64,000 bases of DNA from the NCBI RefSeq assembly GCF_054482525.1, contig NZ_CM137006.1; one strand, given 5' to 3'. The notes under the pieces were generated by a model, which was given only the letters and a program-made list of their open reading frames with translations, ran no database searches and was not told the origin of the DNA. This document shows, one piece after another, positions 24,566-25,675 of this stretch. The position numbers and the translations under genes are program-made. Each line of letters begins with the position of its first letter. Position 1 is the stretch's first letter.

Positions 24566-24786
24566 TTAAGACTTTTCTGAAGAGGGCGGCCATTGTTGTG
24601 ATAAATGAAGTGACTGTCCATCAGAAACAGTAACAACTATTTTCACCCGATCGTCCGGGGAAATATTTAAACTCAACTTCGTCAAAGCAATGGGTTGATT
24701 AGCAGGCAATGAGAGGGTCTTTTCTTGCTTCGTCTGACTTTTCCCTGAACTGCCTTCGCGCAGGGACAATATTTGTACTCTGCATA
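24566..24786 (-). pseudogene. csgC: csgC 3' fragment (C-terminal ~70 codons), separated from its 5' part by IS1
   Basis: translation ...SLREGSSGKSQTKQEKTLSLPANQPIALTKLSLNISPDDRVKIVVTVSDGQSLHLSQQWPPSSEKS matches the CsgC C-terminus; ends at the IS1 left junction. Confidence 0.85.
24778..24786. repeat. 9-bp target-site duplication (ctctgcata), left copy
   Basis: identical 9-mer immediately flanks both IS1 ends. Confidence 0.85.
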
Positions 24787-24841
24787 GGTGATGCTGCCAA
24801 CTTACTGATTTAGTGTATGATGGTGTTTTTGAGGTGCTCCA

Positions 24842-25117
24842 GTGGCTTCTGTTTCTATCAGCTGTCCCTCCTGTTCAGCTACTGACGGAGTGGTGCGTAA
24901 CGGCAAAAGCACCGCCGGACATCAGCGCTATCTCTGCTCTCACTGCCGTAAAACATGGCAACTGCAGTTCACTTACACCGCTTCTCAACCCGGTACGCAC
25001 CAGAAAATCATTGATATGGCCATGAATGGCGTTGGATGCCGGGCAACCGCCCGCATTATGGGCGTTGGCCTCAACACGATTTTACGTCACTTAAAAAACT
25101 CAGGCCGCAGTCGGTAA
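24842..25117 (+). CDS. insA: IS1 protein InsA
   Basis: 91-aa product [30 protein letters not shown]... recognised as InsA. Confidence 0.95.
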
Positions 25118-25539
25118 CCTCGCGCATACAGCCGGGCAGTGACGTCATCGTCTGCGCGGAAATGGACGAACAGTGGGGATACGTCGGGGCTAAATCGCGC
25201 CAGCGCTGGCTGTTTTACGCGTATGACAGGCTCCGGAAGACGGTTGTTGCGCACGTATTCGGTGAACGCACTATGGCGACGCTGGGGCGTCTTATGAGCC
25301 TGCTGTCACCCTTTGACGTGGTGATATGGATGACGGATGGCTGGCCGCTGTATGAATCCCGCCTGAAGGGAAAGCTGCACGTAATCAGCAAGCGATATAC
25401 GCAGCGAATTGAGCGGCATAACCTGAATCTGAGGCAGCACCTGGCACGGCTGGGACGGAAGTCGCTGTCGTTTTCAAAATCGGTGGAGCTGCATGACAAA
25501 GTCATCGGGCATTATCTGAACATAAAACACTATCAATAA
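25036..25539 (+). CDS. insB: IS1 transposase InsB reading frame (expressed as an InsAB' fusion by -1 frameshift)
   Basis: 167-aa ORF overlapping the insA 3' end; recognised as InsB. Confidence 0.9.
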
Positions 25540-25554
25540 GTTGGAGTCATTACC

Positions 25555-25563
25555 CTCTGCATA
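25555..25563. repeat. 9-bp target-site duplication (ctctgcata), right copy
   Basis: identical to 24778..24786. Confidence 0.85.
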
Positions 25564-25675
25564 GACAAGATTGAGTAAGAGTGACTTCAGGAATAATGGT
25601 GTACATATCCCCTTGCTGGGTCGTATTAAAGGTTATCTGACTGGAAAGTGCCGCAAGGAGTAATAACGCATTCAT
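25555..25675 (-). pseudogene. csgC: csgC 5' fragment (signal peptide plus ~20 residues), reads into IS1 and terminates
   Basis: MNALLLLAALSSQITFNTTQQGDMYTIIPEVTLTQSCLCR then a stop inside the IS1 right end; the two fragments minus the 9-bp duplication make 333 nt, i.e. 110 aa plus stop. Confidence 0.85.

Follow-up and report, generated by a model that had tools for sequence, protein, structure and literature searches.

CsgC is a low-abundance periplasmic protein that inhibits the amyloid formation of both CsgA and CsgB at substoichiometric amounts (PMC12205649), and a 2015 review termed its low abundance unexplained. Intracellular amyloid has been reported for cells without both CsgG and CsgC, and a csgC single knock-out still makes fibres, which were described as polymorphic (PMC4389571). 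The systems closest to the locus described here are the engineered csgC/agfC knock-outs (Evans et al., 2015; Gibson et al., 2007), in which, as far as they are covered in PMC4389571, CsgC is lost and csgBA are present, and on which our expectation of the phenotype is based. These are laboratory deletions in K-12 or Salmonella, whereas the allele analyzed here is a natural insertion-sequence allele that leaves a 41-aa N-terminal peptide and possibly exerts polarity.

Insertion sequences also break the csg locus in natural isolates, as they do in the present case. E. coli FAM21845 carries IS1 between csgD and csgB (PMC5514686), Shigella sonnei carries IS600 in csgD (PMC12511311), and in the complete Shigella flexneri genomes that we fetched, csgA was split by an IS3-family element in every locus, with csgC sometimes interrupted too. 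In these cases, the regulator, the promoter region or the major subunit is struck and curli are abolished, whereas the locus analyzed here loses only an accessory inhibitor. Gene inactivation by IS1 as such is textbook knowledge. No report of IS1 in csgC was found in the literature searched; the top match for csgC and IS1 (10.1101/2025.08.04.668416) was discarded, as "csgc" there denotes a cas9-sgRNA-gfp-catB cassette.

The locus lies in a stretch of 64,000 nucleotides of an E. coli chromosome (the window), in which csgC has very probably been hit by a real and recent IS1 transposition that ends CsgC after residue 40.

Anatomy of the IS1 insertion in csgC

A sequence-only reading had described csgC as split by a complete IS1 that is flanked by 9-bp direct repeats. 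When we re-read the sequence and recomputed all positions with a script, its coordinates were correct to the base. The interrupted gene occupies the minus strand from 24566 to 25675 and is composed of the following parts:

24566..24786, minus strand: csgC 3' fragment, nt 113-333 including the stop codon
24778..24786: left copy of the target-site duplication, CTCTGCATA
24787..25554, plus strand: complete IS1 of 768 bp, with insA antiparallel to csgC
24787..24809, plus strand: left terminal inverted repeat of IS1 (IRL), which begins GGTGATGCTGCC at 24787
24794..24821: promoter-like site for insA
24842..25117, plus strand: insA, 91 aa, GTG start
25036..25539, plus strand: insB reading frame, 167 aa
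25093..25099, plus strand: A6C programmed -1 frameshift site
25532..25554, plus strand: right terminal inverted repeat of IS1 (IRR), which finishes GGAGTCATTACC at 25554
25550..25675, minus strand: truncated csgC frame of 41 aa, closed by Gly and stop (GGG TAA) from the right end of IS1
25555..25563: right copy of the target-site duplication, CTCTGCATA
25555..25675, minus strand: csgC 5' fragment, nt 1-121, that is codons 1-40 and the first base of codon 41; 100% identity over residues 1-40 in tblastn

Starting at 25675, csgC is read for 121 nt before it runs, as the sequence-only reading had described, into the right end of IS1 (GGTAATGACTCC), and the frame then closes as a 41-aa product (MNALL...SCLCRG) of 40 CsgC residues and one glycine. 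The CxC motif (C37-L-C39) is retained in this 5' fragment, and Pfam PF10610 matches a 41-aa product that is identical to the truncated product of the window. On the other side of the element, the sole in-frame ORF of the 3' fragment starts from a TTG at 24769 and encodes 67 aa without a signal peptide; an exact look-up of this C-terminal product found no record.

The two copies of CTCTGCATA abut the element on either side and give a target duplication of exactly 9 bp, as tests for 8 and 10 bp failed. When IS1 and one copy of CTCTGCATA were deleted in silico, an open 333-nt ORF for a CsgC of 110 aa was obtained. Coincidence cannot account for an exact 9-bp duplication and, at the same time, the precise recovery of a known gene. 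Over residues 11-110, the restored CsgC shares 99% identity with the CsgC of PDB 2Y2T/2Y2Y, its homologues carry PF10610 (Tafi-CsgC), and its ORF lies without any mismatch at the position of the annotated csgC (WP_000992814.1) of E. coli 19KM1776. It is the third gene after csgB-csgA and divergent from csgDEFG, the position expected of csgC. The frame of the window itself does not run uninterrupted over the whole beta-sandwich, so that csgC is here a disrupted gene (pseudogene).

The inserted element agrees with IS1 in length, terminal repeats, insA and insB with the A6C site, duplication size, for which 8-9 bp is expected (PMC5009759, PMC12428005), and sequence identity. It has imperfect inverted repeats of about 23 bp, in line with the GGT(G/A)ATG start typical of the family; the two ends agree at 22 of their first 35 positions, and its terminal 30 bp are identical to those of 10 of 11 annotated IS1 copies from other genomes at IRL and of 9 of 11 at IRR. 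Total length and ORF lengths are the same as in these 11 copies, and translation with a conceptual -1 shift at A6C yields an InsAB' of 232 aa that lacks any internal stop. Ends and insA/insB, which had been taken to be intact, were both found so, and judged by its sequence the copy has every required part. As to the mechanism, the InsAB' transposase would have cut the two strands of csgC with a 9-bp stagger across nt 113-121, and repair of these cuts would have produced the CTCTGCATA duplication.

Relatives, age and probable donor of the insertion

The DNA flanking the insertion is 100% identical to that of E. coli 19KM1776 (from a dog in Switzerland), SCU-102, and PCN033, in all of which csgC is intact. 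Over the entire restored window (63,223 bp), 19KM1776 differs by five SNPs and one 1-bp indel, none of them in the csg locus; four of the differing positions are in the first 50 kb, and one SNP and the 1-bp indel are in the last 13 kb. Queried from both sides, the exact csgC-IS1 junction of the window was not found in any of 5,426 complete E. coli genomes. As a near-identical strain has an intact csgC and the junction is absent from the complete genomes, the comparison with related strains that had been suggested for dating the event points to a very recent insertion that is private to this strain or a close clone. With tblastn, we found no second csgC within the 64-kb window, and nearly every E. 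coli genome has just one csgC (median of one place per genome).

The indel relative to 19KM1776 is a 1-bp deletion in a G run of rutG (52908..52911, plus strand; GGGG to GGG), which throws the gene out of frame some 55 codons from its start; either rutG is truly a pseudogene, or the assembly has a homopolymer error at this run. Several other features of the window were recorded along the way. Rfam matches above the gathering score were the PyrC leader (7199..7248, plus strand), ES036 (CssrF; 16379..16421, plus strand), the ES056 sRNA just before the start codon of csgD (27293..27384, plus strand), a tRNA (32985..33069, plus strand) at the place of an annotated tRNA-Ser in 19KM1776, and the Ysr251 antisense RNA near phoH (34418..34611, plus strand). 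A gene for a DUF2726 protein (33164..33850, minus strand) beside tRNA-Ser and a gene for a 447-aa hypothetical protein between efeU and putP (40282..41625, plus strand) are annotated in 19KM1776 as well. Among matched protein records, two from ENA metagenome contigs (P0002 and P0004) are predicted to run from an N-terminus resembling ribosomal protein L19 (PF01245) through the csgA-csgC spacer into a full-length CsgC; these fusions are probably chimeric contigs or over-extended gene calls.

With regard to its origin, the IS1 of the window matches many records that bear the annotation "IS1-like element IS1A family transposase" with 100% identity along its 768 bp. In comparison with 11 chromosomal copies near csgC in other strains, identity was 99.1-99.5% to nine and 96.6-98.0% to the other two. 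The isoform is marked by an A at IS1 position 103, which differs from all 11 of these copies, and by a T at position 687, which differs from 10 of them. Most exact copies of the isoform sit on large conjugative plasmids of E. coli, in the neighbourhood of iss/bor or colicin genes, and several strains have it on both plasmid and chromosome. Since identical copies are mostly plasmid-borne, the incoming element was probably derived from a plasmid-borne IS1.

IS1 insertions at nucleotide 121 and in the csgC-ymdA region

We searched for further insertions at the same site by exact look-ups of predicted truncated products, with contigs from public short-read assemblies (Logan). When IS1 inserts after a first codon position, the same product results in both orientations (xGG, followed by TAA or TGA). 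The identical 41-aa product was found in a contig of run ERR9845807, where the left end (IRL) of IS1 abuts csgC at nt 121. This is a different allele from that of the window, as both the csgC backbone (98.5% identical over 4.1 kb) and the IS1 end at the junction are different. In SRR15369522, IRL abuts nt 121 on a K-12-type CsgC backbone, and in ERR769182, the right end (IRR) abuts nt 121 in a sequence that differs from the window even within the duplicated 9 bp. These three read sets share with the window the junction and the truncated product; their backbones are different, and the element is oppositely oriented in two of the three. All of these short-read contigs show the 5' junction only. 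Over 3 kb, identity among the four backgrounds is 97.7-99.3%. The differing backbones and orientations argue for at least three, and most likely four, independent IS1 insertions at csgC nt 121, two per orientation.

As a control, products were predicted for neighbouring positions of the same phase on three backbones, with eight positions sampled in all and nt 109 tested on two of the three backbones. No predicted product was found for nt 112, 115, 124, 127, and 130 on the three backbones, whereas true IS1 junctions were present at nt 118 (ERR15165483, several samples) and nt 109 (SRR21776379). If the window is left out, three of five further events are at nt 121, for which a binomial calculation by hand gives P of about 0.016 (three or more at this position, specified beforehand, if hits were uniform over the eight positions), although the look-ups depend on gene calling at contig ends and have no denominator. 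With this limited sampling, the data suggest that IS1 has a local hot spot with nt 121 at its centre. A metagenome scan with a junction pattern that allowed either IS1 end gave 0 matches.

Some candidates for additional hits were rejected. Partial proteins of 40 aa that end in SCLCR do not mark the site, as most of their contigs end at nt 120-122 and read GCAGAGT, as the uninterrupted gene does; the look-up had picked out contigs that happen to break off there, and only one of them (L027) has a true IS1 junction, at nt 118. A 40-aa partial product of this kind from S. flexneri is listed for 16 NCBI contigs, and two such contigs (L025, 1..808; L026, 1..618) begin in an IS3-family element inside csgA and end exactly at csgC nt 121. 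They were not counted as IS1 cases, since complete genomes retrieved via the truncated CsgA show either an intact csgC or an IS3-family element at nt 134 or about nt 143-145. In S. flexneri CP012735.1 (L041, 5425..7009) and a second locus (L043), csgC is interrupted by such IS3-family elements, one with the end sequence TGAAGTGGTCAACAAAAACTGGCC at nt 143-145 and the other at nt 134 with a deletion that reaches ymdB.

To put the site into its surroundings, we counted junctions of the csgC 5' part with either IS1 end in the 5,426 complete E. coli genomes, from the csgC start to the ymdA stop. This 765-bp stretch carried IS1 in 20 genomes, which correspond to about 11 independent events:

csgC nt 78, with a deletion to ymdB: C10
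csgC nt 289: cS76a
csgC-ymdA spacer: HS, MC1000, S3, B-1109
ymdA: NR2550, EC21, M171-1, AB1157/HB101/RR1, ST540/23CRST022

By chance, roughly 9-10 genomes would be expected at about 11 chromosomal copies per genome. The stretch is therefore at most about two-fold enriched, and given clonal sharing we consider a regional hot zone unconvincing. These cases resemble the window in the element, in duplications of 8-9 bp and in the stretch concerned, and C10 and cS76a also disrupt csgC; however, none is at nt 113-121, and csgC is left intact in most. Among the individual cases, the AB1157/HB101/RR1 lineage of K-12 derivatives has IS1 at ymdA nt 286-294 (RR1: L008, 2277..3044), and MC1000 has it 79-87 bp past the csgC stop (L007, 1950..2717). 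C10 (L010, 1530..2375) shows an IS1-associated rearrangement without target duplication that has lost csgC nt 79 through ymdA to ymdB nt 42, and in B-1109 (L013, 1977..2744), IS1 after csgC has no target duplication and is followed by unrelated DNA of an inverse-autotransporter pseudogene.

Published precedents for such recurrence are the IS186 hot spots in fimA and menC (Lee et al., 2016; PMC5009759), which likewise show repeated independent insertions at one site in either orientation. IS186 recognizes GGGG(N6/7)CCCC, whereas for IS1 there is a preference for AT-rich DNA without a clear motif (Lee et al., 2016; PMC5009759), and none was found at csgC. The target flanks are moderately AT-rich (59-69% AT in 39-bp windows versus a mean of 56%), in agreement with this published preference. 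No IHF-like motif with at least 8 of 9 specified positions was present within about 65 bp of the nt-121 target, and the best match of the target to the IS1 ends was 9/12, which 47% of random windows equalled and which is thus no better than chance. Among AT content, IHF-like motifs and similarity to IS1 ends, no sequence feature was found that explains the preference for nt 121. The site does not look random: nt 121, with rarer hits at nt 118 and nt 109, appears to be a locally preferred IS1 target, and it was struck independently in other lineages.

Recurrence could also reflect convergent selection against CsgC, for example for a change of curli or biofilm, rather than a target preference. 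It would fit such a selection that csgC has been struck by IS1 at nt 78, 109, 118, 121, and 289 and by the above IS3-family elements at nt 134 and about nt 143-145 in S. flexneri, and that the protein collection contains frameshifted CsgC variants (P0018, P0022, P0024). However, selected hits would scatter over the whole gene and not concentrate at one nucleotide in both orientations. Moreover, IS1 is within csgC in only 2 of the 5,426 complete E. coli genomes, the adjoining non-coding spacer and ymdA are struck at least as often, and the nt-121 alleles occur in only one or two samples each, none of which has spread. We therefore consider selected loss to be unlikely. A stronger version, in which csgC nt 109-121 is a true two-orientation hot spot that serves as a high-rate, possibly excision-reversible off-switch for CsgC and is favoured under some conditions as a convergent adaptive loss, appears to us more unlikely still; if it were true, the knock-outs would be favoured, for example via altered curli fibre properties or biofilm behaviour, and would not be neutral damage. 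A target preference is the reading that we favour.

Expected consequences for CsgC, curli and neighbouring genes

The genes around the insertion, together with a hairpin upstream of csgC, are arranged as follows:

24134..24445, minus strand: ymdA, intact, the gene downstream of csgC, which could face IS1 polarity
25686..25718, minus strand: terminator-like hairpin in the csgA-csgC spacer, with a stem of 13 bp, a U8 tail and, upstream, an A-rich tract
25734..26189, minus strand: csgA, intact, 151 aa
26230..26685, minus strand: csgB, intact, 151 aa as annotated in 19KM1776
27440..29785, plus strand: csgDEFG, all intact and identical to 19KM1776

What remains of CsgC is the signal region and no more than about 30 mature residues, with the CxC motif retained. 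Most of the beta-sandwich is gone, as about 70 of its roughly 100 mature residues are lost by the truncation. By stopping the frame after residue 40 and one additional Gly, the inserted IS1 would have generated a null allele, with the loss of function resulting from truncation. The sequence-only reading had also pointed out that csgB and csgA are intact, and this holds; both genes are identical to those of 19KM1776. With csgBA and csgDEFG intact, subunits and secretion machinery are present and curli should still be made in the absence of CsgC. CsgA would thus still be secreted and polymerized with its periplasmic amyloid inhibitor missing; the premise that CsgC restrains CsgA amyloid in characterized systems matches the literature (PMC12205649, PMC4389571). 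Because csgG is intact, we expect a mild or subtle phenotype, such as an altered fibre morphology or aggregation, and not a loss of curli or overt toxicity.

As IS1 is strongly polar in either orientation, an established property of the element, it is conceivable that the main effect of the insertion is regulatory and consists of polarity on ymdA or of IS1 read-out antisense to csgA, rather than of the loss of CsgC. In principle, ymdA could be affected, as it follows csgC on the same strand at a distance of 120 bp, and transcription of insA and insB points to the csgC 5' part and csgA. However, there should be an obstacle on the way to csgA. A consensus terminator scan missed the hairpin between csgA and csgC, which was revealed by direct folding (-23.4 kcal/mol, z = -5.7). 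This hairpin could be bidirectional, since it is flanked by an A-tract and a U-tract, and transcripts that leave IS1 toward csgA should therefore be blocked as well, so that transcripts from either side would be halted before csgA. The same hairpin could also account for the low abundance of CsgC. While polarity on ymdA is possible, the sequence leaves no doubt that the CsgC protein is lost, and regulatory effects are speculative, which makes a primarily regulatory effect very improbable.

That the assembly has misplaced an IS1 into an intact csgC at repeat resolution is the least credible explanation, close to negligible, as a misjoin would yield neither the exact 9-bp csgC duplication around a full-length IS1 nor the perfect restoration of the ORF and as the same junction in independent read sets of other strains indicates that insertion at this site is biologically real, even though IS1 is a multi-copy element (median of about 11 places per genome) that frequently causes misassembly and the 1-bp homopolymer difference in rutG gives a hint that the assembly is not entirely free of sequence errors.

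In summary, csgC::IS1 is a new allele and, at the same time, an ordinary insertion-sequence knock-out of a well-known type. It leaves the current understanding unchanged, as both gene inactivation by IS1 and insertion-sequence damage to curli loci are well documented. Only the repeated insertion at one nucleotide goes beyond routine; it is suggestive, though not rigorously quantified, and offers a small and defined substrate for studies of IS1 target choice. For curli biology, the strain is predicted to be a natural CsgC-null with a complete curli production and secretion system. As most data on CsgC come from K-12 deletions or in vitro work, it would provide a wild-isolate background for the role of CsgC.
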